Assembly (NCBI GenBank): GCA_964016885.1
Contig: OZ024743.1
Location: forward strand, 236,282,001-236,346,000
Reading direction: 5' to 3'
DNA: 64,000 nucleotides
DNA from: Eledone cirrhosa
Lineage: Eukaryota
In this document: positions 6,001 to 61,712 of the stretch, piece by piece
Layout: every line of letters starts with the position of its first letter
How positions within the stretch are numbered: position 1 is the stretch's first letter
The notes under the pieces: generated by a model
Told to the model about the DNA's origin: nothing
Database searches by the model: none
What the model saw: only the letters and a program-made list of their open reading frames with translations
Translations under genes and position numbers: made by a program

Positions 6001-7419
6001 CAATATATTTCCATCTGCTGGACAGTTGATAGCTACTACTTCATAACAATATATTTCCATCTGCTGGACAGTTGATAGCTACTACTTTATAACAATATAT
6101 TTACATCTGCTGGACAGTTGATAGCTACTACTTTATAACAATATATTTACATCTGCTGGACAGTTGATAGCCACTACTTTATAACAATATATTTCCATCT
6201 GCTGGACAGTTGATAGCTACTACTTTATAACAATATATTTCCATCTGCTGGACAGTTGATAGCCACTACTTTATAACAATATATTTACATCTGCTGGACA
6301 GTTGATAGCTACTACTTTATAACAATATATTTACATCTGCTGGACAGTTGATAGCCACTACATTATAACAATATATTTACATCTGCTGGACAGTTGATAG
6401 CCACTACTTTATAACAATATATTTACATCTGCTGGACAGTTGATAGCTACTACTTTATAACAATATATTTACATTTGCTGGACAGTTGATAGCTACTACT
6501 TTATAACAATATATTTCCATCTGCTGGACAGTTGATAGCTACTACTTTATAACAATATATTTACATCTGCTGGACAGTTGATAGCTACTACTTTATAACA
6601 ATATATTTATTTCTGCTGGGCAGTTGATAGCTACTACTTTATAACAATATATTTACATCTGCTGGACAGTTGATAGCCACTACTTTATAACAATATATTT
6701 CCATCTGCTGGACAGTTGATAGCTACTACTTTATAACAATATATTTCCATCTGCTGGACAGTTGATAGCCACTACTTTATAACAATATATTTACATCTGC
6801 TGGACAGTTGATAGCGACTACTTTATAACAATATATTTACATCTGCTGGACAGTTGATAGCTACTACTTTATAACAATATATTTACATCTGCTGGACAGT
6901 TGATAGCCACTACTTTATAACAATATATTTCCATCTGCTGGACAGTTGATAGCTACTACTTTATAACAATATATTTCCATCTGCTGGAAGTTGATAGCCA
7001 CTACTTTAAAACAATATATTTCCATCTGCTGGACAGTTGATAGCCACTACTTTATAACAATATATTTACATCTGCTGGACAGTTGATAGCTACTACTTTA
7101 AAACAATATATTTCCATCTGCTGGACAGTTGATAGCCACTACTTTATAACAATATATTTACATCTGCTGGACAGTTGATAGCTACTACTTTATAACAATA
7201 TATTTACATCTGCTGGACAGTTGATAGCTACTACTTTATAACAATATATTTCCATCTGCTGGACAGTTGATAGCCACTACTTTAAAACAATATATTTCCA
7301 TCTGCTGGACAGTTGATAGCCACTACTTTATAACAATATATTTACATCTGCTGGACAGTTGATAGCTACTACTTTATAATAATATATTTACATCTGCTGG
7401 ACAGTTGATAGCCACTACT
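1..7419. repeat. 46-bp tandem satellite, about 161 monomers, open at the left edge
   Basis: Unit agttgatagc(t/c)actactttataacaatatattt(a/c)catctgctggac repeats with period 46 (position 1, 47, ...). Near-identical copies, non-coding. Confidence 0.98.
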
Positions 7420-11194: not shown

Positions 11195-11346
11195 TATATG
11201 TATATAAAAGGTAAACAGAAATAACAACACAATCGATACAGTATATGGAAGGGATATATTAGGTTAACGCTTGATATAGCAGGAAGAGGGTCTTGACGTT
11301 TCGGACGCTAGTCCTTCATCGTTTCCGACGCTAGTCCTTCATAAGG
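11195..11346 (-). mobile_element. HHR-bearing pLTR family A copy, core disrupted by a short tandem duplication
   Basis: Reverse complement reads atgaaggactagcgtcggaaac-gatgaaggactagcgtccgaaacgtcaaga. Homologous to 31552-31670 and 41702-41800. Confidence 0.75.
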
Positions 11347-16535: not shown

Positions 16536-17105
16536 ACATACATACATGATGCCCCCCCCCCCCCCCTCGTTATAGAGTATGGCCATTGCACGATATACCA
16601 TTATTAGTAATTATTAATTAATTCCATCGTGCAATACCTGTGCGCAAGGATTTTTTTAAAGTGAAGAATCCCACTCTCTGAGCGACAGTAGTTATAACCC
16701 GAAAAGAAGAAAAGATCAACATCATCGGTAACTTCTGAGCCGCAGGTTTTATGTCGGAATTATCCCAGTTTCCTGAGTTGCTTTCTCCTAGAAGAATGCT
16801 CTGACAAAAGCTAGGGGTCCCTCACTCCTAGTGGTTTAACCGCGCGATTTCTATGTCCTCGCGCATATACATATACATACATATGTACATGTGTATATAC
16901 ATATTTACACATTTTTGGATGGCCGTTGACTCTTATGAGTTCTTCCGCCCTTTGTCAGGATTTGATTTTTGTCCTGCAGGGTGTCCAAAATCACTCTCTT
17001 CACCAAGTAAGCTTGGTGGGGTTGCTAGTTTAGTCGCCGACGACCCGACCATGCGACAGGTTGTACTGGACTACATGTTACCAGTAGTACTCAAGAGTGA
17101 CTCGA
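16536..17105 (-). mobile_element. RTE-derived non-autonomous element (5' UTR plus 3' UTR) with (TGTA)n tail
   Basis: 5' part homologous to 19740-19932; 3' part homologous to 24093-24133; bounded by (CATA)n on both sides. Confidence 0.55.
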
Positions 17106-17202
17106 CATACATACATACAAATATACATACATACATACATACATACATACATACATACATACATACATACATACATACATACATACATACATACATACAT
17201 AC
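17106..17202. repeat. (CATA)n microsatellite at the 5' junction of R4 copy 1
   Basis: Direct inspection. Confidence 0.95.
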
Positions 17203-19384
17203 TCTATAGGCAAGATCTCATACGGCTGTTTACAGAAGCCATTAAAGGCACACAAGAACTGCCCAGATGGTTATCAACTGCCACTACTCTCCTCATTCCC
17301 CAAAATAGCCAAACTACCCCTGCTAAAATTACGCCCAATAGCCTGCCAAAACATCATGTATAAATTATATACTGGGTACCTTAACCTGTTCTTACAGGAT
17401 CACTGTGCTACCAACAACATCATAACACCTGAGCAAGCTGGTGGAAAGAGGGAGGTGTGGGGCTGCATAGATCACCTACTAACTAATAAAATGATTCAAG
17501 AAAAAACAACAAAGAATCGCAGAAACATGACTGTGGTGTGGCTGGACTATCAAAAAGCATTTGATAGTGTACCTCATTGGTGGATTGTTAAGGCTTTACA
17601 GTTAGCCAAAGTCCCACAACCACTGGTAGCTGCTGTTGAACGTCTGACCAAGAACTGGTACACCAATTTGATCCTTAGAGGTGAGAAGGAGCAAGTTAAG
17701 ACTGATAAGATACATTACCAGAAGGGCACAGGGTGATAGCTTGTCAGTGCTACTCTTCGTTCTGTCACTAAATCCACTATCTTACCTACTCAGGAAACAA
17801 CGTGGACAAAGAAATGGGTCCAGAAGTATCTCCCATCTTTTCTTTGTTGATGACCTGAAGTTGTATGGGCCAAATATCAATGACATCAAGAAACAATTGG
17901 ACCTCATTACACAATTTTCAACAGACATCAAAATGAAATTTGGTGAGTCCAAGTGTGCATATTTGGCAGTAAAACTTGGAAGAGCTGTGCCCTCCTCTAG
18001 AAATCTAGAGATGAACGTCCTGATAATACAACCTCTACAGTCAGGTGACAACTACAGATATATTGGACAGGATGAGAATGTCAGATATGATGGACCCATA
18101 AATAAGGAGAGAACCAGAACTGAATACCTCAGAAGAGTAAAGAAAATATGGTCATCAGAACTGTCAGCGTACAACAAATACATTGCCCACAATACTTATG
18201 CTGTGCCAATTCTAACGCCAACATTTGGCCTGCTGAACTGGTCATTGCAAGAACTAAGTGAGATGGATGTTAGAACTCGCAAACTTCTCAGTGTTACTGG
18301 GAACTTTAACACCAATGGTGATGTGGAAAGGCTATACTTCTCACGCAAGGAAGGTGGCCGGGGTCTAAAATCCATATTAACATCATATGAGACCCGGATA
18401 GTAACACTAAATATCATTAGAATAGCCACTGATCTGGAGGAGAGATATGGAATAAAGCCTGATATAAATCTCTCACCCAGAAAAATCGGAAGATGTTCAA
18501 ACAAGATGAAAAAATTGACCAATTTACAGAAAAAGTTGTGCATGAATACTTGAGACGTAAAACACAGACCATAGAGGGGATAAACCACTCAAAAAGCTTG
18601 GCATGGAGTTCCGACAAATTTATGACATCACACCTTGAGGGATATCTCTATGCAATACAGGAACAAGAACTCCCTACCAAATATCTGCTGCACAAAAGGG
18701 GAGGGCCATCAGCTGACAATAAATGTAGGCTATGTAAAACAAAGATTGAGGATGTAAGCCACATTGCTGCCAGCTGCGAAAGAATGTCATCTCGCTACTA
18801 GTCCCCCCCCCCCCATGAGACACGATGGGATAGCTAGAACCATCTGGAACGCACTTCGGAAAACAAAATTAACAACAAACGAGGAAGAATATATTGAGAC
18901 AGATCGCACTAAGGAATACTGGTGGAACCTGAAAATAAAAACTGCCACCAAATTAAAGCACAACCGGCCTGATATTGTTGTTTGGGACCACACATTGAAA
19001 ACGTGTTCTGTTGTGGAGATCAGCTGCCCACTTGATGTAAAGGTTGTCAGAAAATTACAGGAGAGGGAGGACATCTACGGACCATTGATGAGGAGTTTAC
19101 AAATCCAGTATCCAAGATACACCTTTAGCTTCATACCCATCATTATTGGTGCTACGGGTTATATAGCAACCCGCTTGGACCAAAGTATGACTGAACTTGG
19201 ATTTGCGGACAAAGAGCGCAGCTCCCTAATTCATAGTCTACAAATGGCTGCGATAGCTGGCACCTTCAAAATTTGCAAAACATTCTTGCGATTCAAGGGA
19301 TGACAATATCTTTTCTTTTACAACCTTGCCACCAGGAAGGTGGCCGGCCAAAAAAATATACTCGAAATTAAGAGAAAGAGATAA
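17203..19384 (+). mobile_element. 5'-truncated R4/Dong-clade retrotransposon (family 1), frameshifted RT-CCHC-RLE ORF ending at 19303
   Basis: WLDYQKAFDSVPH, QGDSLS, HLFFVDDLKLY, CRLC..E...H....C, RHD, NRPDI, EISCP spread over several frames. Confidence 0.92.
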
Positions 19385-19390
19385 CATACA

Positions 19391-19932
19391 TCATGGCTGA
19401 AACTCACCTTCGAGTAATGCCATCACTTGACACTCAAGCGTGAGCATCACACACGTGACCCTTCAGTCCCGCCAGGTACCTCCCCTTGAGCAGCAATACC
19501 ATGCATCGCAAAAAAATGTCACATATCAAGCGATGCCTGTCCCTGAAACTTTTTAAAGTGAGGAAAGGCTTTGCATGGGGCCAATCCCATTCTCTGAACA
19601 TCGAATACATTTACACAAAAAGAAGAACTGGTTTACATCATTGGATGCAAACGAGGTCGCAGGTTTTATATCAGAGTGACCTTCTCCTAGAGAGATGTCT
19701 TAATGAAGACTAGGAGTCGCTCACTCTACAAAAAAACTTTAGTGGATGGCCGATAACTCTCCTGAGGTCCTCCGCGCTTTGACTGCTTTTGTTTTTCATC
19801 CATCAAGCTGTACACAATCACCCTCCGTACCAAGCAAGCTTGATGGGGGTTCCCGGTTTAGTCGCCGACGACCGGACCATGCACAAGTTGTATTGGGTTA
19901 AATGTTACCAGTAGAGCTGAAGAGCGACCTGA
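19391..19932 (-). mobile_element. RTE-derived non-autonomous element
   Basis: Minus strand ends in LAGLKGHV (RTE C-terminal zinc-finger-like). 5' region homologous to 16910-17105. (CATA)n on both sides. Confidence 0.55.
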
Positions 19933-19957
19933 CATACATACATACATACATACATAC

Positions 19958-22900
19958 CTCAGTCAACGCGATCAGTCGCATATTTTGGCGTAGGAGACTA
20001 TTTATTAAATTTAAGATGAATACTATCTCCGACAGTAAGGCCACAACTACAGCCAGGTTGAATAACTGGTTATCCTTTTAACTATCCCTTCTGAAAACAC
20101 CTTTTATTCGAATTCGTAGAGATATCGACTAAATACATAATTCATTTTACAAGGATTTGCTACAAACAGCATGGCTGAACACAACATCAACAAGAAAATT
20201 AAGGAAGTATCGAAGACAAATAACAAAGAAGGTAATCAAACTTTATTCAGTTGTAGCTACAGAAGAAACCGAAATTATAAATCGCATTTCTCTTGGAGTT
20301 GCGAACTTAATAATGATTTATTTAATTGTTATAAAATGGCAAAAAACAATCCCTCCATTGGCTATATGAATAGAATGAAGCTACACTGGGACGAAATGCA
20401 CCCAGAGCTAAATTATTTCACAGCGAAACAATTACGCCAACAAGCGACGTTTGTTGAACGTAAAAATAAGATAAATATTATTAATTGTAAGACCCCCACA
20501 ACAAACATGGAATCAACAACACGTGCTACAGATCGCCATGCTACTAGACTTCCTAGCAGCCAGGTCGAACAGCGCCTTGAAATAACTATGCCTGTACCAT
20601 CTAAGTCTACCTCGAATGCTGGGGAAAACACTATCGATAATAATAATAATCGAAGAAATAATAATAATAATCGAATAAATGTGACACCACGTATACCATC
20701 CGAGTCTACCTCGACTGTTGTGGAAAATACTATCGATAATGATAATCAAAAGTATAAACAATTGAAAATTTCCATCAACGAAATCTTCCAGAGAGAAATT
20801 AACTCATGTATAAATATCTCTCTGGCTGAACGTGTTAAAATGACAATGGTGAATAAAAAACCAAATAATGAAATACTACGTGTTATTGACGAAATAGGGG
20901 ATGAATATTTACGACGGATAAAAACCCCAACATTTTGGCAAATCAACGCCTGTTTATATGCCTTAGCAATGACAGTGAAGCATTATCTTGGTGATAGCAG
21001 AGATATTAACAAGAACAAAACACCACCAAAAATACCATCATATATAACTAAAATAGAAAAAAAGTGTGCTGACCTACGAAAAAACATAGGACATGTGATA
21101 ATGCTCCTTATATGCAAACAAACACAAAAAAACCTCACTCCTCACCAACAAAGAGGGAAAAATAAAATAGAGACGATGTTTGGTAACAGTAGAACCAGAA
21201 CTCTCCAATATAAGCTGATCACCCTCAAACAAGAATTGAGAGCTGTTAGCGAAAAACGCCGATACCTGAAGAAGGTAGATGAGAGAAAAATGCTTAATAA
21301 AAGATTCAGACGAAACCAAACATCAGTCTATAGAGATATGAAGGACAAAATAATAAGTATCACTGAGGCTCCATCCCAGAAAGACATAGATTCCTTTTGG
21401 AGAAAAATATGGGGTGAAAAGAAGAATTTCAACCAAGATGCAGTGTGGCTAAGAGAAATCCGAAAGAACTATTGCTCCTACACTACAACAAAAACATACG
21501 AAATAAGTGAGGGTACCCTTGAGACTGTGATAGGAAAACTCCAAGATGAGAAAACACCAGGAGGAGACATGATTGTCGGCTACTGGTACAAAAAACTAAT
21601 ATTCTATCGGAGGTATCTTACTGACCTCTACCAACAAGTTCTTAAGGGAGAAACACTTATACCAGAATGGTTGACATTAGCACAAACGTTACTGGTCCCC
21701 AAGAACAAAGACACCCACTTGGCAAAAAACTACCGACCAATTGCATGCCAGAACCTGATGTATAAGATGTATACAGCCTGCCTCAACCTATTCCTCCAAG
21801 ATCACTGTGAAAATAATAACATCATCACAGATGAACAAGCAGCTGGAAAGAAAAGGTTTGGGGATGTGCTGAACAACTCCTAATCAACAAAACTGCGATG
21901 TCGGAGGTGCGACAACTTAGGAGGAATATGACTACAGTCTGGCTGGACGACAAGGAAGCTGTCGATTCTGTTCCCAACTCTTGGATGATAAAGCCCTCCA
22001 ACTTGCTAAAGTCCCAGACATTATTGTCAGAGCCATAGAGAGGCTGTCTTCTTCTTGGGCTACTATCCTAAGGTTAAAGACAGAGAGGGAGGACTCTATT
22101 TTTACTGATAAAATAAAATATCGCAGGGGTATATTTCAGGGAGACAGTCTCTCTGTGATATTGTTCATCTTGTCATTAAACCCCTTGTCCTTTCTGCTCA
22201 AGAAATGTGAGGGATACATCATTGGCTCACAGGAGGACAGAAATACGAACCTAACCCATAATTTCTTTGTGGATGATCTGAAACTCTATGCCAAGAACAT
22301 GGAGGGGATGAAGAAAAATCTTGACCTGATTACAACATTCTCAAAGGATATAGGAATGGAGTTTGGCCAAGATAAATGCTCATATATGACTGTAAAGCGG
22401 GGAAAAACAACAACCCAATCTAGCACCATTGTCATCAATGGCCTAACTGTTTCACCGATATCTGATGAGGAGTGCTACAGATACCTGGAGATAGATAAGA
22501 ACATATCCTATAATGGTATCTGTACTAAGGAACGCGTAACCAGGGAATACTACACCCGATTAAGAAAGATCTGGTCATCGGAACTCTCTGCGCAAAACAA
22601 AACAGTGGCTCACAATGTGTTTGCTGTGCCTGTCCAAACACTAACGTTTGGAATACTCAATTGGACGATAGACGAAATCCGAGCAATTGATGTTAGAACT
22701 CTAAAAATACTGAACAACACCGGAAACTTCCACATCAACAGTGACATAGACCGCCTTTACTTGAAACGTAAGTAGGGAGGCAAGGGGATAACATCAGTTC
22801 AGACAGCATTTGAATGTCGCATCATATCCCTCCGACAACGTCTACGAACCTCGAAGCGAAGGAGGCCGTCTCTCGAGCAAGTCTATCTGCATGAAACAGA

Positions 22901-24075
22901 TAAGATCATGAGAGTTGGGAAGGAACTCCTCGAAAGATATTCCCTGTGTGATAATCAAAATCTCAAATTCAGGGAAGTCACTCAACAGTATCGCAGTGAA
23001 TCCATGGATGAAAAAGTGCATGCTTATCAGCAAAAAATCATGTATGGATATGTTGCCAGGAAGCTCCAGAATGAGAGTAATATAAATAAGGAAAGTAGTC
23101 TATCTTGGTCCAACAACCGCTATATTGGCTCCCACTTTGAAGGATACTCTTTTGCAATTCAAGAACAGGAAATCAACACGAAATACCTGATTCACAGAAG
23201 AGATAGGGATGCAGGCAAAACACCTAGATGTGACAACACGTGCAGGCTCTGCAGAATTAACATTGAAGATGTCACCCATGTCATAAGCAGCTGTCCAAAG
23301 ATGTCATCGCGGTACTATCTACCTATGAGGCATGATATAGTGGCCAAAACACTGTACAATGCAATCCGTAGAAAAAATAGTCCCGATAATTAACACATTA
23401 AAAGCTACAGCAATGTGGAAGACAGAAATATTCATAATATGAAAGAGTACTGGTGGAATGTTCCAGTAAAAACCCTAATAAAATGCAGGCATAACAGACC
23501 AGATATTATGATATGGGACAGAGAAAAGAAGGCATGCACAGTAGTGGAAATTAGCTGCTCAGCAGATGCCAATATAATATCAAAGATTAGTGAAAAGGAG
23601 AATATTTATGCAGAACTGATGAGAAATCTGCAGATACTCCACCCTGATTACACCTTCAGATTTATGCCTGTGATTATTGGGGCACTGGGGTATGTTAGTA
23701 ACTGCCTCAATACAAATCTTGAGAAGCTAGGCTTCATAGGAACAGAAAGAACACAACTAGTTAGGAAATTATAAGTACAATCCATTAATGGGACACTAAA
23801 AATATGTAAAACATTCCAAACATTTTGCATCTAATAACTGCATATACACATGTACAGATACAAAGCATTTACACACGCACACATACAACTCTAAACATAC
23901 ACATCCACACATACAATAACATCCATACCTGCACACACATGCAGAGATGCAGACATGCAGACATAATCTACCTAGTTGATGTTGTGTAAATTCCAATGAG
24001 AGAGTCTTGTGTCTATGTTAGAAACTGACTCTCTCTCTATTGGGAAAAATTTGTGAAATTATAAAACCGGAAGAA
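19958..24075 (+). mobile_element. Full-length R4/Dong-clade non-LTR retrotransposon (family 2, copy A)
   Basis: About 4.1 kb with 5' UTR, single ORF and 3' UTR stem-loop (gagagagtc/gactctctc). Starts and ends in (CATA)n. Confidence 0.93.
20171..23834 (+). pseudogene. Disrupted Myb-like/RT/CCHC/RLE polyprotein of about 1220 aa
   Basis: N-terminal W..E.N..L..CY...GY..RM...W....P; NYRPIAC; GIFQGDSLS; FFVDDLKLY; CRLC/H/C; RHD; NRPDI; EISC. Frameshift near 21855, stops at 22773, 23391 and 23772. Confidence 0.9.
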
Positions 24076-24092
24076 CATACATATACACATAC

Positions 24093-24380
24093 ATGATGGC
24101 TGCCCACTCGTTATCGTGTATGGTCATTGCACGTGAAAAAATATATATATATGTATGTATATTAATAACAACAATAATAATAATAATAACAACAATAATA
24201 ATAACGACAACAACAACAAAGATAATATACATATATATATATACACACACGCACGCACATAAACATATCTATACACACACACGATAGCAATTAACAGCGC
24301 TGCGATCGAATGTGACTTTGTAGCCCAGCCAATGATCTAAAATGTCTTGCACAGAGTCGGCAACCAAAACATTCACTGGG
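24093..24380 (-). mobile_element. RTE 3' remnant (C2H2-like finger plus 3' UTR) interrupted by microsatellite
   Basis: CRLCARHFRSLAGLQSHIRSQRC*; 3' UTR homologous to 16548-16592. Confidence 0.6.
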
Positions 24381-24401
24381 AATACATACATACATACATA
24401 C

Positions 24402-27400
24402 TCCATGAGTCAACGCGATCAGTCGCATATTTTGGCGTGGGAGACTATTTATTAAATTTAAGATGAATACTATCTCCGACAGTAATGCCACAACTACAGC
24501 CAGGTTGAATAACTGGTTATTCTTCTAACTATCCCTTCTGAAGACACCTTTTATTCGAATTCGTAGAGATATCCGACTAAATACATAATTCATTTTACAA
24601 GGATTTGCTACAAACAGCATGGCTGAACACAACATCAACAAGAAAATTAAGGAAGTATCGAAGACAAATAACAAAGAAAGTAATCAAACTTTTTCAGTTG
24701 TAGCTACAGAAGAAACCGAAATTATAAATCGCATTTCTCTTGGAGTTGCGAACTTAATAATGATTTATTTAATTGTTATAAAATGGCAAAAAACAATCCC
24801 TCCATTGGCTATATAAATAGAATGAAGCTACACTGGGACGAAATGCACCCACAGCTAAATTATTTCGCAGCGAAACAATTACGCCAACAAGCGACGTTTG
24901 TTGAACGTAAAAATAAGATAAATATTATTAATTGTAAGTCCCCCACAACAAACATGGAATCAACAACACGTGCTACAGATCGCCATGCTACTAGACTTCC
25001 TAGCAGCCAGGTCGAACAGCGCCTTAAAACAACTATGCCTGTACCATCTAAGTCTACCTCGAATGCTGGGGAAAACACTATCGATAATAATAATAATCGA
25101 AGAAATAATAATAATAATCGAATAAATGTGACACCAAGTATACCATCTGAGTCTACCTCGACTGTTGTGGAAAATACTATCGATAATGATAATCAAAAGT
25201 ATAAACAATTGAAAATTTCCCTCAACGAAATCTTTCAGAGAGAAATTAACTCATGTATAAATATCTCTCTGGCTGAACGTGTTAAAATGACAATGGTGAA
25301 TAAAAAACCAAATAATGAAATACTACGTGTTATTGACGAAATAGGGGATGAATATTTACGACGGATAAAAACCCCAACATTTTGGCAAATCAACGCCTGT
25401 TTATATGCCTTAGCAATGACAGTGAAGCATTATCTTGGTGATAGCAGAGATATTAACAAGAACAAAACACCACCAAAAATACCATCATATATAACTAAAA
25501 TAGAAAAAAAGAGTGCTGACCTACGAAAAAACATAGGACATGTGATAATGCTCCTTACATGCAAACAAACACAAAAAAACCTCACTCCTCACCAACAAAG
25601 AGGGAAAAATAAAATAGAGACGATGTTTGGTAACAGTAGAACCAGAACTCTCCAATATAAGCTGATCACACTCAAACAAGAATTGAGAGCTGTTAGCGAA
25701 AAACGCCGATACCTGAAGAAGGTAGATGAGAGAAAAATGCTTAATAAAAGATTCTGACGAAACCAAACATCAGTCTATAGAGATATGAAGGACAAAATAA
25801 TAAGTGTCACTGAGGCCCCATCCCAGAAAGACATAGATTCCTTTTGGAGAAAAATATGGGGTGAAAAGAAGAATTTCAACCAAGATGCAGTGTGGCTAAG
25901 AGAAATCCGAAAGAACTATTGCTCCTACACTACAACAAAAACATACGAAATAAGTGAGGGTACCCTTGAGACTGTGATAGGAAAACTCCAAGATGAGAAA
26001 ACACCAGGAAGAGACATGATTGTCGGCTACTGGTACAAAAAACTAAAATTCTATCAGAGGTATCTTACTGACCTCTACCAACAAGTTCTTAAGGGAGATA
26101 CACTTATACCAGAATGGTTGACATTAGCACAAACGTTACTGGTCCCCAAGAACAACGACATCCACTTAGCAAAAAACTACCGACCCATTGCATGCCAGAG
26201 CCTAATGTATAAGATGTATACAGCCTGCCTCAACCTATTCCTCCAAGATAACTGTGAAAATAATAACATCATCACAGATGAACAAGCAGCTGGAAAGAAA
26301 AGGGTTTGGGGATGTGCTGAACAACTCCTAATCAACAAAACTGCGATGTCGGAGGTGCGACAACTTAGGAGGAATATGACTACAGTCTAGCTGGACTACA
26401 AGAAAGCTGTCGAATCTGTTCCCCACTCTTGGATGATAGAGGCCCTCCAACTTGCTAAACTCCCAGACATTATTGTCAGAGCCATAGAGAGGCTGTCTTC
26501 TTCTTGGGCTACTATCCTAAGGTTAAAGACAGAGAGGGAGGACTCTATTTTTACTGATAAAATAAAATATTGCAGGGGTATATTTCAGGGGGACAGTCTC
26601 TCTGTGATATTGTTCATCTTGTCATTAAACCCCTTGTCCTTTCTGCTCAAGAAATGTGAGGGATACATCATTGGCTCACAGGAGTACAGAAATACGAACC
26701 TAACCCATAACTTCTTTGTGGACGATCTGAAACTCTATGCCAAGAATATGGATGGGATGAAGAAAAATCTTGACCTGGTTACAACGTTCTCAAAGGATAT
26801 AGGAATGGAGTTTGGCCAAGATAAATGCTCATATATGACTGTAAAGCGGGGAAAAACAACAACCCAATCTAGCAACATTGTCATCAATGGTCTAACTGTT
26901 TCACCGATATCTGATGAGGACTGCTACAGATACCAGGGGATAGATGAGAACATATCCTATAATGGTATCTGTAATAAAGAACGCGTAACCAGGGAATACT
27001 ACACCCGATTAAGAAAGATCTGGTCATCGGAACTCTCTGCGCAAAAAAAAACAGTGGCTCACAATGTGTTTGCTGTGCCTGTCCTAACACCAACGTTTGG
27101 AATACTCAATTGGACGATAGACGAAATCCGAGCAGTTGATGTTGGAACTCTAAAAATACTGAACAACACCGGAAACTTCCACATCAACAGTGACATAGAC
27201 CGCCTTTACTTGAAACGTAGGCAGGGAGGCAGAGGCCTAACATCAGTCCAGACAACATTTGAATGTCGCATCATATCTCTCCGACAACATCTACGAACCT
27301 CTAAGCGAAGGAGCCCGCTTCTCGAGCAAGTCTATCTGCACGAAACAGATAAGATCATGAGAGTTGAGAAGGATCTCCTTGAGAGATATTCCCTGTGTGA

Positions 27401-28479
27401 TAATCAAAAACTCACACCCAGGGATGTCGCTCAGCAGTATCGCAGTGAATCCATGGATGCCTATCAGCAAAAAATCATGCATGGATATGTTGCCAGGAAG
27501 CTCCAGAGTGAGAGTAATATAGATAAGGAAAGTAGTTTATCTTGGACCAACAACCGCTATATTGGCTCCCACTTTGAAGGATACGCTTTTGCAATCCAAG
27601 AACAGGAGATTAGCACGAAATACCTGATTCACAAAAGAGATAGGGATGCAGGCAAAGCACCTAGATGTGATAACAAGTGCAGACTCTGCAGAACTAACAT
27701 CGAGGATATCACCCATGTCATCAGCAGCTGCCCAAAGATGTCATCGCGGTACTATCTACCTATGAGGCATGATGTAGTGGCCAAAACACTGTACAATGCA
27801 GTTCGTAAAAAAGATAGCCCCGATAATAAACACATTAAAAGCTACAACAATGTGGAAGACATCCATGTACATAATATGAAAGAGTACTGGTGGAATGTTC
27901 CAGTAAAATCCCCAATAAAATGCAGGCATAACAGACCAGATATTATGATATGGGACAGGGAGAAGAAAACATGCACAGTAGTGGAAATTAGCTGCCCAGC
28001 AGATGCCAATATAATATCAAAGATTAGTGAAAAGGAGAATATTTATGCAGAACTGATGAGAAATCTGCAGATACTCCACCCTGATTACACCTTCAGATTT
28101 ATGCCTGTGATTATTGGGGCACTGGGATATGTTAGTAACTGCCTCAATACAAATCTTGAGAAGCTAGGCTTCATAGGAACAGAAAGAATACAACTAGTTA
28201 GGAAATTACAAGTACAATCCATTAATGGAACAGTAAAAATATGTAAAACATTCCAAACATTTAGCATCTAATAACTGCATATACACATGTACAGATACAA
28301 AGCATATACACATGCACACATACAATAACATCCATATCTACACATGCATGCATGCAGACATACATACATATCTACCTAGTTGATGTTGTGTTAATTCCAA
28401 TGAGAGAGTCTTGTGTCTATGTTAGAAACCGACTCTCTCTCTATTGGTAAAACTTTGTGAAATTATTTAACCAGAAGAA
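24402..28479 (+). mobile_element. Full-length R4/Dong-clade retrotransposon (family 2, copy B)
   Basis: Co-linear with copy A at an offset of 4447 bp; preceded by (CATA)n. Confidence 0.93.
24619..28271 (+). pseudogene. Disrupted Myb-like/RT/CCHC/RLE polyprotein; C-terminal 612 aa (26433-28271) uninterrupted
   Basis: Frameshift near 24690, stops at 25755 (TGA) and 26388 (TAG); same motifs as copy A. Confidence 0.9.
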
Positions 28480-28485
28480 CATGCA

Positions 28486-28735
28486 TAAAAATATGTAAAA
28501 CATTGCAAAAATTCTGCATCTAATAACTGCATATACACAGATACAAAGGATATGCACATGCACACATACACACCCACACATACAATAACATCCATACCTG
28601 CACACACATGCATGCAGACATACATATTTACCTAGTTGATGTTGTGTAAATTCCAACGAGAGAGTCTTGTGTCTATGTTAGAAACCGACTCTCTCTCTAT
28701 TGGTAAACATTTGTGAAATTATAAAACCAGAAAAA
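28486..28735 (+). mobile_element. Severely 5'-truncated R4 family 2 copy (last codons plus 3' UTR)
   Basis: aaaatatgtaaaacatt...atctaa plus the same 3' UTR; ends in (CATA)n. Confidence 0.85.
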
Positions 28736-31551: not shown

Positions 31552-31587
31552 TCTTCTGATGAAGGACTAGCGTCCGAAACATTAAGA
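31552..31587 (+). ncRNA. Minimal hammerhead ribozyme (family A)
   Basis: TCTT-CTGATGA-A-GGAC TAGC GTCC-GAAAC ATT-AAGA. The sister copy at 11291 preserves GAAACGTC. Confidence 0.8.
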
Positions 31588-36402: not shown

Positions 36403-36452
<50 letters not shown>

Positions 36453-36586
36453 GTGTGTAAAAGTTCTATTTAAATTGTTGGGATACAACAAGCAAATATT
36501 TTTATAACTGATATAAAGCACTCAATAAATAATTGGAGTAAAAATACGATATTAACAAATGGAAACTATATTTATAAAACCATATT

Positions 36587-36651
36587 TATTTCATTATACA
36601 TATTTCAAGGACACCAAGTTAAATTATGGTGTGCTTTCATCAGATAAAATA
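36587..36651 (-). ncRNA. Hammerhead ribozyme (left arm of a 125-bp inverted repeat)
   Basis: Exact reverse complement of 36751-36815. Confidence 0.8.
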
Positions 36652-36750
36652 TAATATAGATCAGTTTTATATTATCCGGGAGCTTCCAACAGTAATGGTT
36701 GCATTCTTTAAGGGTATGTCAATATTTATTTATAAAACTGATCTATATTA

Positions 36751-36815
36751 TATTTTATCTGATGAAAGCACACCATAATTTAACTTGGTGTCCTTGAAAT
36801 ATGTATAATGAAATA
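36751..36815 (+). ncRNA. Hammerhead ribozyme (right arm of a 125-bp inverted repeat)
   Basis: TATTTTAT-CTGATGA-AAGcACACCA loop TGGTGTcCTT-GAA-ATATGTAT-A-ATGAAATA; 8-bp stem I; AUA cleavage after 36807. Confidence 0.8.
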
Positions 36816-36904
36816 AATATGGTTTTATAAATATAGTTTCCATTTGTTAATATCGTATATATATTGGAAAAAGTGTGAAATCGTTGGTACAGTTAGGTGT
36901 ATTT

Positions 36905-42224: not shown

Positions 42225-42870
42225 GAAAGGTATAGAAAGTATTGTAGCAAGAAGCCAACAGTATTCCACAATATATAAGTGACTATAGCGTCAAAATGGG
42301 AAAATAGTTAACGTAAGATGTGGGAAAAATAATTCAAACTCAATTCAAAAAGAATCAGGATATAGATTTATCCAACAGAATTTAGTGAAATCCAGGGAAA
42401 AACCAATAGAGCCTTAACTCATGATAAAATAAAGTTTAAAATACTCATCCTTCAATTTGGGACAACTACAAATGCTCTGTATAGTCTTGAAAAAGACTAT
42501 TTCACGAAAACTTTCAGTGGAGATGGTCACGGTTGGAATACGATCATCAGCAGAGCTCAACACGATATATATATATATATATATATATATCGTGTATAGG
42601 TATACTTTATTATGTGTGGTTGTTACTCTATATATTTTACTGTGAGGTATACTATACTGTCTGAGGTTGTTACTGTATATATTTCACTGGGGTATACTAT
42701 GTGAAATGGTTGGAAGCCCCATCTTCCGAGTTCCGAGTTCCTAATTCTTTCTACAGAGCTTAGAAAAACTGAAGGACCGCTGCAATAAGAGTGTGAATCT
42801 GAGAGGGGAATATGTTGAATAAAATTATAATTAACTGATCCTCCTGTATTTTCTTTTACCCAAACCCTCG

Positions 42871-42922
<52 letters not shown>

Positions 42923-43124
42923 TATGTACACGTACATACATATATGTATACAGACGTACAGTAGTATGTATATATATATACATACATGTACACACATATA
43001 TATATACGTATGGATTCACCGAACATTTATTATAATGCTCGGTGTGTTTGTAAACAAACATCCCATATTAACCCGTAGTGTCCAGCAACCATCGTTGCTC
43101 GTTTGTTCAACACTGACAAAGGAA

Positions 43125-43165
43125 CGCTGTACTAGTTTCAAGCTTATTAGCTATCGTCAGCAACG
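43125..43165 (-). ncRNA. Minimal hammerhead ribozyme (antisense copy)
   Basis: Exact reverse complement of 43377-43417. Confidence 0.88.
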
Positions 43166-43376
43166 TATACCTTCCTGCCAGATTGTTGAACGTATATACT
43201 CACCTTATGCATATTAACGGCTGAGTAGACCAATTTGCATATCGAGTGGGTTAATCGGCCGGGTGCACCGAAAACGATAAACGGAAAAAATGAAACTCGA
43301 TATGCAAATTGGGCTACTCAGCCGTTAATATGCATAAGGTAAGTATATACGTTCAACAATCTGGCAGGAAGGTATA

Positions 43377-43417
43377 CGTTGCTGACGATAGCTAATAAGC
43401 TTGAAACTAGTACAGCG
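43377..43417 (+). ncRNA. Minimal hammerhead ribozyme
   Basis: CGTTG-CTGACGA-T-AGCT AATA AGCT-T-GAA-ACTAGT-A-CAGCG; palindromic stem III; GUA cleavage after 43412. Confidence 0.9.
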
Positions 43418-43800
43418 TTCCTTTGTCAGTGTTGAACAAACGAGCAACGATGGTTGCTGGACACTACGGCTTAATACGGGATGTTTGTTTACAAACACAC
43501 CGAGCATTATAATAAATGTTCGGTGAATCCATACGTACATATATATATGTGTGTGTGCATGTATGTATATATATATACATACTACTGTACGTCTGTATAC
43601 ATATATGTATGTACGTGTACATACTTATATTTAAGTAACAGCCGTACTAAGAGTGGGAAATGAAATTTCGTTTCATTTTTTCCGTTTATCGTTTTCGGTG
43701 CACCCGGCCGATTAACCCACTCGATATGCAAATTGGGCTACTCAGCCGTTAATATGCATAAGGTAAGTATATACGTTCAACAATCTGGCAGGAAGGTATA

Positions 43801-43841
43801 CGTTGCTGACGATAGCTAATAAGCTTGAAACTAGTACAGCG
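43801..43841 (+). ncRNA. Minimal hammerhead ribozyme (tandem copy)
   Basis: Identical to 43377-43417; cleavage after 43836. Confidence 0.9.
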
Positions 43842-44539
43842 TTCCTTTGTCAGTGTTGAACAAACGAGCAACGATGGTTGCTGGACACTACGGGTTAATA
43901 CGGGATGTTTGTTTACAAATTTTTAGAAAATTAACCAGGGAGAACGATAAATAGTGGACCAATAACGTTTAAGTAAGTAAATCTAGACGGATATAAATTG
44001 TGAAAAAATGTGATAAATCTATGTGGTCTGAGAAAGTGGGTATGTTTTGCAAGATTTTGTGTACCAGTCAAATTTCAGGTTTTAAGTTAGGGGCAACGCA
44101 GCGTACGGACTACCTGTGATAAAGGAAATTAAATAGTGTAGCTACAGTGGTAGGTATATAAGTGTCAGTATGTTTGTTCAGTTCGAACATAACAATAATT
44201 AAGTACTAACCATTGAAAGGATACAGGTAAAAATGGCCGAAAGATCACTGCATGATAAACTGGAACCTTATGGTCATAAACACATTAACTAAACCTCCTT
44301 TAAGGTGACAAATGTTGAAGAAGCATGCGTTTCAGAAACATAGGGTAGCTTATGAAAGTACGCATGTAAAAAAAATCTACCATTTGTTAAAAGCCAAAAA
44401 AGAAGTGTGATCCTAGGTCGGACTTGACCGATATAAATAGGAGTGATTTCGCTCAATGAACAACACTCGAGTTGTCTGATTGATTAGATAATACAAATGA
44501 ATGTGATTAAATCTACTGAACACAACTCACTGATATGTG

Positions 44540-47815: not shown

Positions 47816-49708
47816 ATGGAACTGTGTCACTCTTTTGTGGAGGTGTGTCACATTGTTGTAGAACTATGTCACAATGTGGTGGAACTGTGTCACAATGTTG
47901 TGGAGCTGTGTCACACTGTAGTGGAGTTGTGTCACACTGTAGTGGAGTTGTGTCACAATGTTGTGGAGCTGTGTCACGCTGTTGTGGAGCTGTGTCACAA
48001 TTTTGTGGAGCTGTGTCACACTGTTGTGAAGTTGTGTCACACTGTTGTGAAGCTGTGTCACACTGTTGTGGAGCTGTGTCACACTGTTATGGAGTTGTGT
48101 CACAATGTTGTGGAACTGTGTCACACTGTTGTGGAGCTGTAACACACTGTTGTGGAGGTGTGTCACAATCTTGTGGAGCTGTGTCACATTGTTGTGGTGT
48201 TGTGTGACACTGTTGTGGAGCTGTGTCACACTGTTGTGGAACTGTGTCACACTGTTGTGGAGCTGTGTCACACTGTTGTGGAGTTGTGTCACAATGTTGT
48301 GGAGCTGTGTCACACTGTTGTGGAGCTGTGTCACACTGTTGTGGGGCTATAATACTGTAGTGGAGTTGTGACACACTGTACTGGAGCTGTGTCACACTGT
48401 ACTAGAGCTATAACACTGTAGTGGAGCTATAACACTGTAGTGGAACTGTGTCACACTGTAGTGGAGCTATAACACTGTAGTGGAGCTGTGTCACACTGTA
48501 CTAGAGCTATAACACTGTAGTGGAGCTGTGTCATACTGTAGTGGAGCTATAACACTGTAGTGGAGCTGTGTCACACTGTACTAGAGCTATAACACTGTAG
48601 TGGAGCTGTGTCATACTGTAGTGGAGCTATAACACTGTAGTGGAGCTGTGTCATACTGTAGTGGAGCTATAACACTGTAGTGGAGCTGTGTCATACTGTA
48701 GTGGAGCTATAACACTGTAGTGGAGCTGTGTCAAACTGTAGTGGAGCTGTGTCACATTGTAGTGGAGCTATAACACTGTAGTGGAGCTGTGTCACACTGT
48801 AGTGAAGCTATAACACTGTAGTGGAGCTGTGTCACACTGTAGTGGAGCTATAACACTGTAGTGGAGCTGTGTCACATTGTAGTGGAGCTATAACACTGTA
48901 ATGGAGCTGTGTCACACTGTAGTGGAGCTATAACACTGTAGTGGAGCTGTGTCACACTGTAGTGGAGCTATAACACTGTAGTGGAGCTGTGTCACACTGT
49001 AGTGGAGCTGTGTCACATTGTAGTGGAGCTATAACACTGTAGTGGAGCTGTGTCACACTGTAGTGGAGCTATAACACTGTAGTGGAGCTGTGTCACACTG
49101 TAGTGGAGCTGTGTCACACTGTAGTGGAGCTGTGTCACATTGTAGTGGAGCTATAACACTGTAGTGGAGCTGTGTCACATTGTAGTGGAGCTATAACACT
49201 GTAGTGGAGCTGTGTCGCACTGTAGTGGAGCTGTGTCACACTGTAGTGGAGCTGTGTCACATTGTAGTGGAGCTATAACACTGTAGTGGAGCTGTGTCAC
49301 ACTGTAGTGGAGCTATAACACTGTAGTGGAGCTGTGTCACACTGTAGTGGAGCTATAATACTATAGTGGAGCTATAATACTGTAGTGAAGCTATAACACT
49401 GTAGTGGAGCTGTATCACACTGTAGTGGAACTAAGACACACTGTTGTGGAACTATGTCACACTGTAGTGGAACTATAACACTGTTGTGGAGCTGTGACAC
49501 ACTGTTGTGCAGCTTTGTCACACTGTAGTGGAGCTATGACACTGTTGCAGTGGAGCTGTCACACTGTAGTGGAGCTATAAGACTGTTGTGGAGCTGTAAC
49601 ACACTGTTGTGGAGCTATAATACTGTAGTGGAGTTGTGACAGACTGTTGTGGAGCTGTGTTACACTGTACTGGAGCTATGAGACTGTTGCAGTGGAGCTG
49701 TGTCACAC
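47816..49708. repeat. 21-bp/19-bp minisatellite
   Basis: gtggagctgtgtcacactgt(t/a) and gtggagctataacactgta units. Confidence 0.95.
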
Positions 49709-49711
49709 TAA

Positions 49712-57025: not shown

Positions 57026-58751
57026 ATGATGATGGTGATGATGGGGCTGCTGCTGCTGTTGCTGCTGGTGGTGGTGGTGCTGCTGGTGCTGGTGCTGGTG
57101 GTGATAGTGGTAGTGGTGGTAGTGGTGATGATGGTGGTGGTGGTGATGATGATGGTGGTGGTGGTGATGATGATGATGGTGGGGGGGGGGTGATGATGAT
57201 GGTGGTGGTGATGATGAGAGTGGTGGTGGTGGTAGTGGTGGTAGTGGTAGTGGTGGTAGTGGTGATGATGGTGGTGGTGGTGATTGTGGTGATGATGATG
57301 GTGGTGGTGGTGATGATAGTGGTGGTGCTGATGGTGGTTGTGATGATGATGGTGGTGGTGATGATGATGATGGTGGTGGTTGTGATAATGATGGTGGTGG
57401 TGGTGGTAGTGGTGGTGGTGGTGATGATGGTGGTGGTGGTGGTAATGATGGTGGTGGTGGTGGTGATGATGGTAGTGGTGGTGGTGGTAATGATGGTGGT
57501 GGTGGTGGTGATGATGGTGGTGGTGGTGGTGATGATGATGATGGTGGTGGTGGTGATGGTGGTGGTGATGGTAATGATGATAATGATGGTGCAGGTGGTG
57601 ATGGCGGTGGTGGTGGTGATGATGATGGTGGTGGTGGTGATGATGATGGTGGTGGTGGTGGTGGTGGTGGTGGTGATGGTGGTGATTATGATGGTGGTGG
57701 TGGTGGTGGTGGTGGTGATGGTGGTGATGATGATGGTGGTGGTGGTGGTGGTGGTGGTGATGATGGTGGTGGAGGTGGTGGTGGTGGTGGTGATGATGGT
57801 GGTGGAGGTGGTGGTGGTGGCGATGGTGGTGGTGGTGGTGGTGGTGATGGTGGTGGTGGTGGTGGTGGTGGTGATGGTGGTGATGATGATGGTGGTGGTG
57901 GTGGTGGTGGTGGTGATGATGGTGGTGGAGGTGGTGGTGGTGGCGATGGTGGTGGTGGTGGTGGTGGTGGTGGCGATGGTGGTGGTGGTGGTGGTGGTGA
58001 TGATGGTGGTGATGGTGATGGTGGTGATGATGATGGTGGTGGTGGTGGTGGTGGTGGTGGTGGTGGTGGTGGTGGTGATGGTGATGGTGGTGATGATGAT
58101 GGTGGTGGTGGTGGTGGTGGTGGTGGTGGAGGTGGTGGTAGTGGTGGTGGTAATGATGATGATAATGATGGTGCAGGTGGTGATGGCGGTGGTGGTGGTG
58201 ATGATGATGATGGTGGTGGTCGTGATAGTGATGTTGATGGTTATGGTGATGGTGGTGGTGATGGTTATAGTGATGGTGATGGTTATAGTGATGGTGATGG
58301 CTATAGTGATGGTGATGGTTATAGGGATGGTGATGGTGATGGTGATGGTTATAGTGATGGTGATGTTGATGATTATAGTGATGGTGATGGTGATGGTTAT
58401 AGTGATGGTGATGTTGATGGTTATAGTGATGGTGATGGTTATAGTGATGGTGAGGTTGATGGCTATAGTGATGGTGATGGTTATAGGGATGGTGATGGTG
58501 ATGGTGATGGTTATAGTGATGGTGATGGTTATAGTGATGGTGATGGTTATAGTGATGGTGATGTTTATAGTGATGGTGGTGGTGATGGTTATAGTGATGG
58601 TGATGGTGATGGTGATGGTGATGGTGGTGGTGATGGTGATGGTGATGGTGATGGTTATAGTGATGGTGATGGTTATAGTGATGGTGATGGTGATGGTGGT
58701 GGTGATGGTGATGGTGATGGTGATGGTGATGGTGATGGTGATGGTGATGGT
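57026..58751. repeat. (GGT/GAT)n trinucleotide-derived array
   Basis: Direct inspection; source of the 629 and 625 aa low-complexity ORFs. Confidence 0.95.
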
Positions 58752-59811: not shown

Positions 59812-61712
59812 TAATAATAATGAAATTATTATGTACAGTGCTCAGGTGCACTACGACTCATCAAAGGTGTATGTATGGTACATAGAATAATATACAAATG
59901 TCAGGAAAGTGAATAGTGTATGAGTAATGATATACATGTGTGCGTGTGTAGGGAGGGGGAACATTAGGTGTAGTGTTGGCGAATCTCAGGAAGCATGGAG
60001 GTTTTAAAGGATACAATGTCTCGACAGCTAACAACTGATGCAGGTAGTTTGTTCCAAGGAGGTTTTAAAGGGTGCAGTGTCTCAACAGATAACAACTGAT
60101 GCAGGTAGTTTGTTCCAATGAGGTTTTAAAGGGTACAGTGTCTCAACAGATAACAACTGATGCAGGTAGTTTGTTCCATGGAGGTTTTAAAGGATGCAGT
60201 GTCTCAACAGCTAACAACTGATGCAGGTAGTTTGTTCCATGGAGGTTTTAAAGGATGCAGTGTCTTGACAGCTAACAACTGATGCATGTAGTGTGTTCCA
60301 TGGAGGTTTTAAAGGATGCAGTGTCTCAACAGCTAACAACTGATGCAGGTAGTTTGTTCCAAGGAGGTTTTAAAGGGTGCAGTGTCTTGACAGCTAACAA
60401 CTGATGCATGTAGTGTGTTCCATGGAGGTTTTAAAGGATGCAGTGTCTCGACAGCTAACAACTGATACAGGTAGTTTGTTTCATGGAGGTTTTAAAGGAT
60501 GCAGTGTCTCGACAGCTAACAACTGATGCAGGTAGTTGTTCCATGGAGGTTTTAAAGGATGCAGTGTCTCAAAACAGCTAACAACTGATGCAGGTAGTTT
60601 GTTCCATGGAGGTTTTAAAGGATGCAGTGTCTCAACAGCTAACAACTGATGCAGGTAGTTTGTTCCATGGAGGTTTTAAAGGATGCAGTGTCTCAAAACA
60701 GCTAACAACTGATGCAGGTAGTTTGTTCCATGGAGGTTTTAAAGGATGCAGTGTCTCGACAGCTAACAACTGATGCAGGTAGTTTGTTCCATGGAGGTTT
60801 TAAAGGATGCAGTGTCTCAACAGCTAACAACTGATGCAGGTAGTTTGTTCCATGGAGGTTTTAAAGGATGCAGTGTCTCGACAGCTAACAACTGATGCAG
60901 GTAGTTTGTTCCATGGAGGTTTTAAAGGATGCAGTGTCTCAAAACAGCTAACAACTGATGCAGGTAGTTTGTTCCATGGAGGTTTTAAAGGATGCAGTGT
61001 CTCAAAACAGCTAACAACTGATGCAGGTAGTTTGTTCCATGGAGGTTTTAAAGGATGCAGTGTCTTGACAGCTAACAACTGATGCATGTAGTGTGTTCTA
61101 TGGAGGTTTTAAAGGATGCAGTGTCTCGACAGCTAACAACTGATACAGGTAGTTTGTTCCATGGAGGTTTTAAAGGATGCAGTGTCTCGACAGCTAACAA
61201 CTGATGCAGGTAGTTTGTTCCATGGAGGTTTTAAAGGATGCAGTGTCTCAAAACAGCTAACAACTGATGCAGGTCGTTTGTTCCATGGAGGTTTTAAAGG
61301 ATGCAGTGTCTCAACAGCTAACAACTGATGCAGGTAGTTTGTTCCATGGAGGTTTTAAAGGATGCAGTGTCTGGACAGCTAACAACTGATGCATGTAGTG
61401 TGTTCCATGGAGGTTTTAAAGGATGCAGTGTCTCGACAGCTCACAACTGATGCAGGTAGTGTGTTCCATGCTTCAACAACTCTGAGCGTGAAAAAATGTT
61501 TCCAAAAGTCAATGGAGCTATGCTGTTTTCTGACTTTGTAGGCATGCCCACGTGTGTTAGACACATGGAAGTCAAAAAGGTGCTCAGGGTTGTTGTTAGC
61601 AAGATGGTTAATAATGTTGTGGGTGTTTACCAAGTCAGTTGCCAGACATCGGAGCTTCAATGTATCCATGCCCATGGAAGTAAGGCGTTCAGAGTATGGT
61701 AGATGCCTGATG
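59812..61712 (-). mobile_element. CR1-group LINE 3' end with (ATT)n tail
   Basis: TRGHAYKVRK...KHFFTLRVVEAWNTLPASVVSC...SFKTSM, then 3' UTR. Confidence 0.88.
59994..61470. repeat. 61-bp tandem array of about 24 units inside the CR1 ORF2 C-terminus
   Basis: catggaggttttaaaggatgcagtgtctcgacagctaacaactgatgcaggtagtttgttc. Confidence 0.95.

Follow-up and report, generated by a model that had tools for sequence, protein, structure and literature searches.

Animal non-LTR retrozymes (PMC7229834; mussel repeats of 350-390 bp; Li, Clavereau and Pollet, 2026 preprint) are described as non-coding tandem repeats a few hundred bases long, with a GC content under 45%, one type I hammerhead ribozyme with a short palindromic stem III per unit, a structured monomer, and thousands of dispersed monomers, dimers and arrays. 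They have been proposed to be parasites of Penelope-like elements (PLEs; PMC7229834; 10.64898/2026.07.22.740005), a proposal argued there from co-occurrence and pLTR homology. The former paper calls PLEs a strong candidate for retrozyme mobilisation, and the 2026 preprint (10.64898/2026.07.22.740005) states that the mechanism of mobilisation remains to be elucidated. Insertions of endonuclease-bearing PLEs, as portrayed in PMC3846280, PMC8557442 and PMC11167929, show partial tandems, 5' truncation, a head-to-head inverted copy, a one-sided tail, AT-rich or microsatellite targets and a hammerhead in the terminal repeat. Two direct repeats together with one inverted repeat is a published arrangement (PMC3846280, PMC8557442), and in vitro the tail lies between two internal reverse-transcription start sites (PMC11167929). 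The Chlamys non-autonomous elements, e.g. MRC1, are described as non-autonomous partners of PLEs with multicopy head-to-tail insertions (PMC8557442), while the minimal hammerheads of PLE pLTRs are of type I, with palindromic positions 15.2-16.2, an extra base after A9 and a predicted dimer (PMC4209133).

The locus described here is one ordinary insertion of a non-coding tandem repeat whose 424-nt unit occurs at least 29,345 times in the 3.0-Gb host genome (exact matches to a 22-nt motif neighbouring the ribozyme, against none for the reversed control), and it is surrounded by repeats in the window, by which the whole 64-kb stretch of DNA analysed is meant. The repeat is very probably a hammerhead-bearing non-LTR retrozyme, likely inserted by the reverse transcriptase-endonuclease of a PLE. 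It resembles the animal retrozymes in all the respects listed above and has what identifies such elements from sequence alone, namely a hammerhead in each unit within the ~150-450 bp range, low GC, a non-coding unit and dispersed multimers; LTR structure is absent, the unit being a circularly permuted tandem. The retrozyme-type tandem repeat of the original prediction, with one hammerhead per unit, is thereby upheld. The insertions share with those of endonuclease-bearing PLEs a one-sided tail, 5' truncation, partial tandems, inversion and an AT-rich target, together with two fixed 3' ends; autonomous PLEs with a like footprint are present in the same genome. The ribozyme agrees with the pLTR hammerheads in every feature given above, and the family resembles the Chlamys elements in its apparent dependence and multicopy head-to-tail insertions. 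In contrast to PLEs, the repeat is here the whole element: an ORF with telomerase-like reverse transcriptase (RT) and GIY-YIG, the mark of an autonomous PLE, was absent from the circularised unit (longest Met-ORF 60 aa on the plus strand and 71 aa on the minus strand) and formed part of the element at none of 168 loci. The tail measures 59 nt, whereas those of PLEs are described as 30-40 nt and 40-65 nt in the host's own PLE families. In the Chlamys elements the 3' end is as a rule similar to that of an autonomous family, and the clade that they come from mostly lacks canonical hammerheads (PMC8557442), whereas the present unit has a hammerhead and no matched partner. Unlike in the published retrozymes, no pLTR homologue is seen among six PLE families, and the insertion footprint itself is read directly. 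Mobilisation of retrozymes by PLEs has thus been proposed before; new here are the family and its unusually legible footprints. The literature searched held no account of the 424-nt family, most subscription papers, repeat databases and preprint supplements lying outside the search, and the family may already be named in some repeat library.

From left to right the locus comprises a (TA)n microsatellite, an inverted arm, one complete unit, a partial second unit and unrelated sequence (Table 1). The inverted arm, put at about 330 bp in the original prediction, is in fact 378 nt long, and its 3' end is the short fixed end of the family. Over these 378 nt, six substitutions and a single 4-nt indel separate it from the plus arm. 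Where all three copies overlap (201 nt), four positions vary, none within the ribozyme, in agreement with the few differences first noted. In a read-through transcript about 321 bases of the inverted arm are predicted to pair with the first plus copy. The AT/GT segment varies in length among copies and terminates at the short fixed end (u334-336), and the 59-nt tail that follows would be the stretch between two reverse-transcription start sites. The 8-nt motif, present in 6 of 6 ancient copies shown, resembles the octamer promoter element, and the left flank preceding the (TA)n (42700-42877) is similar in appearance to a Tc1/mariner-type element end.

Table 1. Features of the insertion, in window positions; u1-u424 are positions of the unit.
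Feature	Position	Strand	Basis or remark
(TA)n microsatellite, insertion target on the left side	42878-42918	.	sequence
Inverted 5'-truncated arm, 378 nt; u375-424 followed by u1-334/336	42919-43296	-	3' end at the short fixed end
Antisense hammerhead, H17 at 43130	43124-43166	-	motif scan
Head-to-head inversion junction, overlap 2 nt	43295-43296	.	
First complete unit, 424 nt, sets u1-u424 numbering; 38% GC, non-coding	43295-43718	+	
8-nt motif, again at 43726-43733	43302-43309	+	kept in young, older and 67%-identical subfamilies
Hammerhead 1, type I; predicted cut after 43412	43376-43418	+	motif scan, covariation, fold
Predicted 424-nt monomer between cut sites, candidate circle	43413-43836	+	fold prediction
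AT/GT simple-repeat segment; long hairpin fold predicted	43530-43630	+	
59-nt tail separating the two fixed 3' ends, u337-u395; hairpin inside	43631-43689	+	
Second unit, partial, u1-u201	43719-43919	+	
Hammerhead 2; predicted cut after 43836	43800-43842	+	motif scan
Breakpoint, u201 joined to interior of unrelated young repeat	43919-43920	.	

A motif scan of both strands of the window recovered the three identical hammerheads that had been predicted, with a length of 43 nt rather than 41 nt, the outer A-U pair having been omitted; each has a 6-bp stem I, a 4-bp stem II and a palindromic stem III. H17 lies at 43412 and 43836 on the plus strand and at 43130 on the minus strand, so that both predicted plus-strand cut sites, 424 nt apart, and the antisense copy fall where they were first placed. 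Rfam at gathering thresholds gave no match in the 64-kb window, and the hammerhead call therefore rests on the motif scan and covariation. Copy numbers were taken from exact-pattern counts of the 36-nt ribozyme core and the 22-nt neighbouring motif; with 5,299 genomic matches to the core and none to its reversed version, a chance origin of the ribozyme motif is excluded. Variation was followed in 75 of the first 100 places listed for the 22-nt motif just downstream of the ribozyme, the other 25 being loci already picked by ribozyme, locus edges or places not retrieved. Of these 75 copies, 69 carry the entire ribozyme motif, collinear, and among them position N7, loop II and a single base pair of stem I account for the common variation, that pair being G.U in 35, U.G in 28 and A-U in four. 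Public contigs, taken from four runs of unrecorded kind, display the same variants as the genome copies; runs X5 and X6, which bear other organism codes, yielded 1 and 9 contigs and do not enter this comparison. Compared with an ancient subfamily 67% identical to the young unit (26 copies in 25 of 25 loci, chosen with a fuzzy ribozyme pattern), five of the ten stem I and stem II pairs have changed on both sides and none is lost, and the stem III palindrome has been swapped for a different palindrome with the core kept. The fold thus looks maintained by compensatory change, as judged from few evolutionary events, though of the expected kind. In one respect the motif deviates from the pLTR hammerheads, in which G10.1-C11.1 is reported as highly conserved (PMC4209133), whereas the unit has a U.U mismatch at the base of stem II. 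The older subfamily has an A.A mismatch at this place.

The suggestion that the palindromic stem III allows two tandem copies to fold as a dimer holds as a prediction. For 43360-43860 the predicted energy of the active double hammerhead is -172.3 kcal/mol. The minimum lies at -172.5 kcal/mol, a difference of no more than 0.2, and two single hammerheads come to -155.7 kcal/mol, which leaves the double form lower by about 17 kcal/mol. As the double hammerhead is so near the minimum, the 424-nt monomer would be the expected product on this model. The candidate 424-nt circle is itself predicted to be structured (folding z = -7.9 against 60 shuffles; with the simple-repeat hairpin left out, z = -4.8). 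Cleavage has left no direct mark in the genome, since by inspection only three of the 75 copies start within a few bases of the cut site. A pile-up of 5' ends at that site was considered and found unconvincing, rough arithmetic giving roughly one such copy as expected. Minimal hammerheads are reported often to cut poorly in vitro (PMC4209133), eight of nine Xenopus (frog) hammerhead dimers were inactive according to the preprint (10.64898/2026.07.22.740005), and in a lizard PLE ribozyme cleavage is dispensable in vitro (PMC11167929). A spliceosomal intron, a feature of PLE terminal repeats, was not found in the repeat: the candidate around the ribozyme (donor-like 43339, acceptor-like 43428) was rejected because its donor is not conserved, being missing in the older subfamilies and in about 44% of contig depth, and no joint skipping it occurs among the contigs listed.

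The forms of the repeat were surveyed at the first 100 of the 5,299 core places, which correspond to 59 locus views, nine redundant ones having been dropped; all lie within the first 54 Mb of a single contig, with a bias to the young subfamily. Copies occur as partial monomers, partial tandems, head-to-head inversions and arrays, the last with 2 to about 50 units; at 11 of 56 loci a single arm contains at least two ribozymes in tandem. The locus had been singled out for its triple ribozyme; it is one of thousands, and its layout of at least two direct ribozymes and one antisense copy recurs in 5 of 29 inverted insertions. Besides the ancient subfamily there is an older one with a unit of ~510 nt, 77-85% identical to the young unit, and at the loci retrieved both have the circularly permuted, non-coding layout of the young unit. 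Long arrays are either homogeneous or show dimer or tetramer periodicity with mosaic units. A two-unit period (842 nt) alternates in two arrays, and a four-unit period occurs in part of an array of ~21 kb (loci L022, L109, L110-L112). Such periodicity was discarded as proof of circles, since local unequal crossing-over fits it as well as rolling-circle copying does. Two further candidates were also dropped: a 60-nt stretch common to the flanks of two copies is a piece of another repeat and not a longer variant of the unit, and an accumulation of 5' ends at u83-92, considered as a transcription start, is gone in the downstream-anchored sample and represents a selection effect.

The ends of the arms carry the clearest record of insertion. 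Of 94 arm 3' ends, 35 fall at u330-340 (short ends), 38 at u388-397 (tailed ends) and 21 elsewhere, i.e. 73 of 94 lie inside two windows that total 21 of the 424 positions, with modal ends at u336 and u395, 59 nt apart. (TA)n follows 31 of the 35 short ends, 32 of the 38 tailed ends (63 of the 73 canonical ends taken together) and 8 of the 21 others; the arm ends thus sit in (TA)n, where a target-site duplication is unreadable. Loose ends in (TA)n at 43689 are also present in 59 contigs of run X1 and four of run X4, which add no independent support since the run may be the assembly's own source. The 5' ends are random and 5' inversions occur. Among 29 inverted insertions fully in view, 18 combine one short with one tailed arm, none has two short arms, two have two tailed arms and nine have one non-canonical end, so that short+tailed pairing holds in 18 of the 20 with two canonical ends (binomial P = 2e-4). 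Visual inspection turned up two further insertions of the short+tailed kind whose companion arms are tiny; they stand outside this count. In 47 of 93 cases the arm is more than one unit long, and this, together with the whole collinear ribozymes of 69 of 75 copies, argues that the template was not a cut linear monomer: cDNA synthesis has continued past the ribozyme site, in keeping with a template that was either a ligated circle or an uncut multimer. Because the cited papers leave the mechanism of retrozyme mobilisation open, such a family matters. Its tens of thousands of copies record the reaction (the target, the two start sites, the short+tailed rule and read-through of the ribozyme site), and young PLE families together with one 424-nt RNA render testable the identity of the mover protein, the circle as template, and twin priming versus fold-back.

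A mechanism with steps of unequal strength is proposed. By analogy with a lizard PLE in vitro, a PLE protein would very probably nick the (TA)n and prime cDNA internally on the RNA at either of the two start sites. Tandem transcripts may fold as a double hammerhead and release 424-nt monomers that a host ligase circularises, the circles or uncut multimers then serving as template, a step for which the case is evenly balanced. With a slight preference, we suggest that both target strands would prime, one per start site, and that the two cDNAs would join head to head, giving rise to the antisense copy. The literature searched, most subscription papers lying outside it, held no count of short+tailed pairing and no account of twin priming for PLEs. 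The explanation that competes best with priming on both strands bears solely on the origin of the antisense copy: it might derive from fold-back self-priming of a single cDNA (or from an antisense template), with the tail trimmed on one side by the endonuclease, as put forward for rotifer PLEs in PMC3846280. We consider this the less probable course, and still a serious one. The window locus is compatible with it, and the short arm is contained in the tailed arm in 7 of the 18 short+tailed insertions, the tailed arm being contained in an upstream unit in four more. In the other seven, neither arm is contained in the other (by margins of 178-367 nt in five and 30-35 nt in two), which is impossible from one folded cDNA, whereas two cDNAs primed at two start sites can yield such arms; a post-insertion deletion at the centre of the palindrome could mimic this pattern.

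A GIY-YIG search of the genome gave 10,597 candidates, of which 150 matches were scored, and five tested frames carry RT and GIY-YIG domains, the RT lying below the Pfam cut-off in three. In five PLE families (A, B, D, E and F) two end sites are seen, both in (TA)n and separated by 40-65 nt, as measured on one copy per family. One inverted insertion of family B likewise pairs a short with a long arm, and with its 54-nt tail and the architecture of its ribozyme this family comes nearest to the unit, a lead as to the partner and nothing firmer. One very young PLE family (L181-L210) has dozens of copies that are 94-96% identical, many of them with intact frames of ~900 codons; it bears its own hammerhead and a 44-nt tail, and three of its copies terminate at a third, more distant site. 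A hammerhead with a U3-A8 core variant and a palindromic stem III was seen in the terminal repeat of family A (L061, L062, L066, L069, L072) and at L261; such variants, described in PMC4209133, escape a scan for the canonical core. Between the unit and PLE terminal repeats no similarity was detected in 50 GIY-YIG loci, in the repeats of the five families (z between -0.8 and 0.3) or in that of a sixth (51.5 against 47.7 +/- 6.7), so that no autonomous parent or partner was found among the six families sampled. Matches to five PLE proteins (tblastn) were found at 5 of 168 loci of the repeat, at none of which the unit is a PLE terminal repeat (four judged by position and one by sequence), and among 36 unpaired arms no fusion to a PLE was seen. 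At L261:5254-5345 (contig C1, ~255,368,840) a 5'-truncated PLE ORF on the minus strand and a plus-strand arm of the ancient subfamily, likewise truncated at its 5' end, meet head to head. A chimeric insertion from two RNAs would be expected to have this geometry; the case is old, stands alone and is non-canonical at its far end, so that a deletion may also account for it.

These observations permit a wider reading, offered tentatively, in which the family is an old, self-standing retrozyme lineage that has outlived its parent and rides on successive PLEs in a SINE-like manner by two-strand, two-site priming. A dimer of the PLE protein would then take a ribozyme RNA, circular or multimeric, as template and prime both (TA)n strands on it, each at a different start site, and the use of two different sites would give each inverted insertion one short and one tailed arm. 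If so, the footprints would be direct evidence on what moves animal retrozymes, and twin priming would be favoured over fold-back for PLE inversions generally. The units could instead be orphan pLTRs of an autonomous PLE that was not sampled, left behind as truncated insertions, made tandem by local unequal crossing-over and without a life cycle of their own, a scenario given in the 2026 preprint (10.64898/2026.07.22.740005). Large arrays do carry signs of local expansion and the comparison covered six PLE families, but in each of the three subfamilies what precedes the ribozyme is the tail of the unit before it and not the end of an ORF, the many arms longer than one unit are bounded by fixed ends and inversion junctions, and at none of the few loci matched by PLE proteins does the unit act as a terminal repeat. 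We therefore regard this origin as very unlikely.

In the window copy, the plus arm terminates at u201, which is neither of the two fixed ends of the family, and the PLE signature of this copy is therefore half borrowed from the family. The sequence from 43920 to ~45670 is the interior of a young repeat that is at least 3 kb long at other loci; a search with 280 nt of it gave 40 matches that were scored, at 95-97% identity. Eleven other copies align from 43920 onward and share sequence upstream of 43920, so that the join between u201 and 43920 is internal to both elements, for which a later deletion is the simplest reading. Such a deletion has in all likelihood taken away the tailed end of the plus arm, the lost right end being, by the pairing rule, probably the tailed one.

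The observation that started the analysis is confirmed, whereas its interpretation is partly supported. A locus acting as a functional circRNA/dsRNA switch, the monomer transcript being silenced or edited through the antisense arm, is still less probable than orphan pLTRs. A read-through transcript would on the predicted fold pair ~321 bp between the arms, and the two plus copies could form the double hammerhead; against this, the layout recurs elsewhere as a by-product of insertion, the right end of this copy is damaged, and its surroundings are repeats, with reverse-transcriptase matches in four of the ten long frames scanned in the window and no other type of match. The antisense copy is hence better read as an insertion by-product than as the silencing device first envisaged. 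That the triplication is an assembly artefact is most improbable: tandem and inverted PLE structures trouble short-read assemblies (PMC8557442) and neither junction is bridged among the contigs listed, a gap that proves nothing, but the copies differ at four sites, on the left the insertion stops in (TA)n exactly at a family end, other loci have a matching anatomy, and the contig spans 379 Mb.

Hammerheads of other families are also present in the window, and the genome contains many repeat families that carry them. At 36430-36900 a palindromic mini-insertion with unequal arms bears motifs of a different hammerhead family at 36587-36651 (-) and 36751-36815 (+), a type also seen at other loci, and adjoins the (TA)n end of a PLE fragment. 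Further motifs lie at 31556 (+), 34657 (-), 11297-11342 (-) and ~42077 (+), two of the four being complete-looking, one internally duplicated and one degenerate. A tandem non-LTR retrotransposon with RT matches occupies 17100-28490 in two units of ~4.4 kb that are 95% identical; its C-terminus resembles that of the restriction-like endonuclease type. Satellite and simple-repeat arrays extend over 1-7419, 47817-49709, 57026-58751 and 59994-61470, with periods of 46, 21/40, 12-45 and 61 nt.
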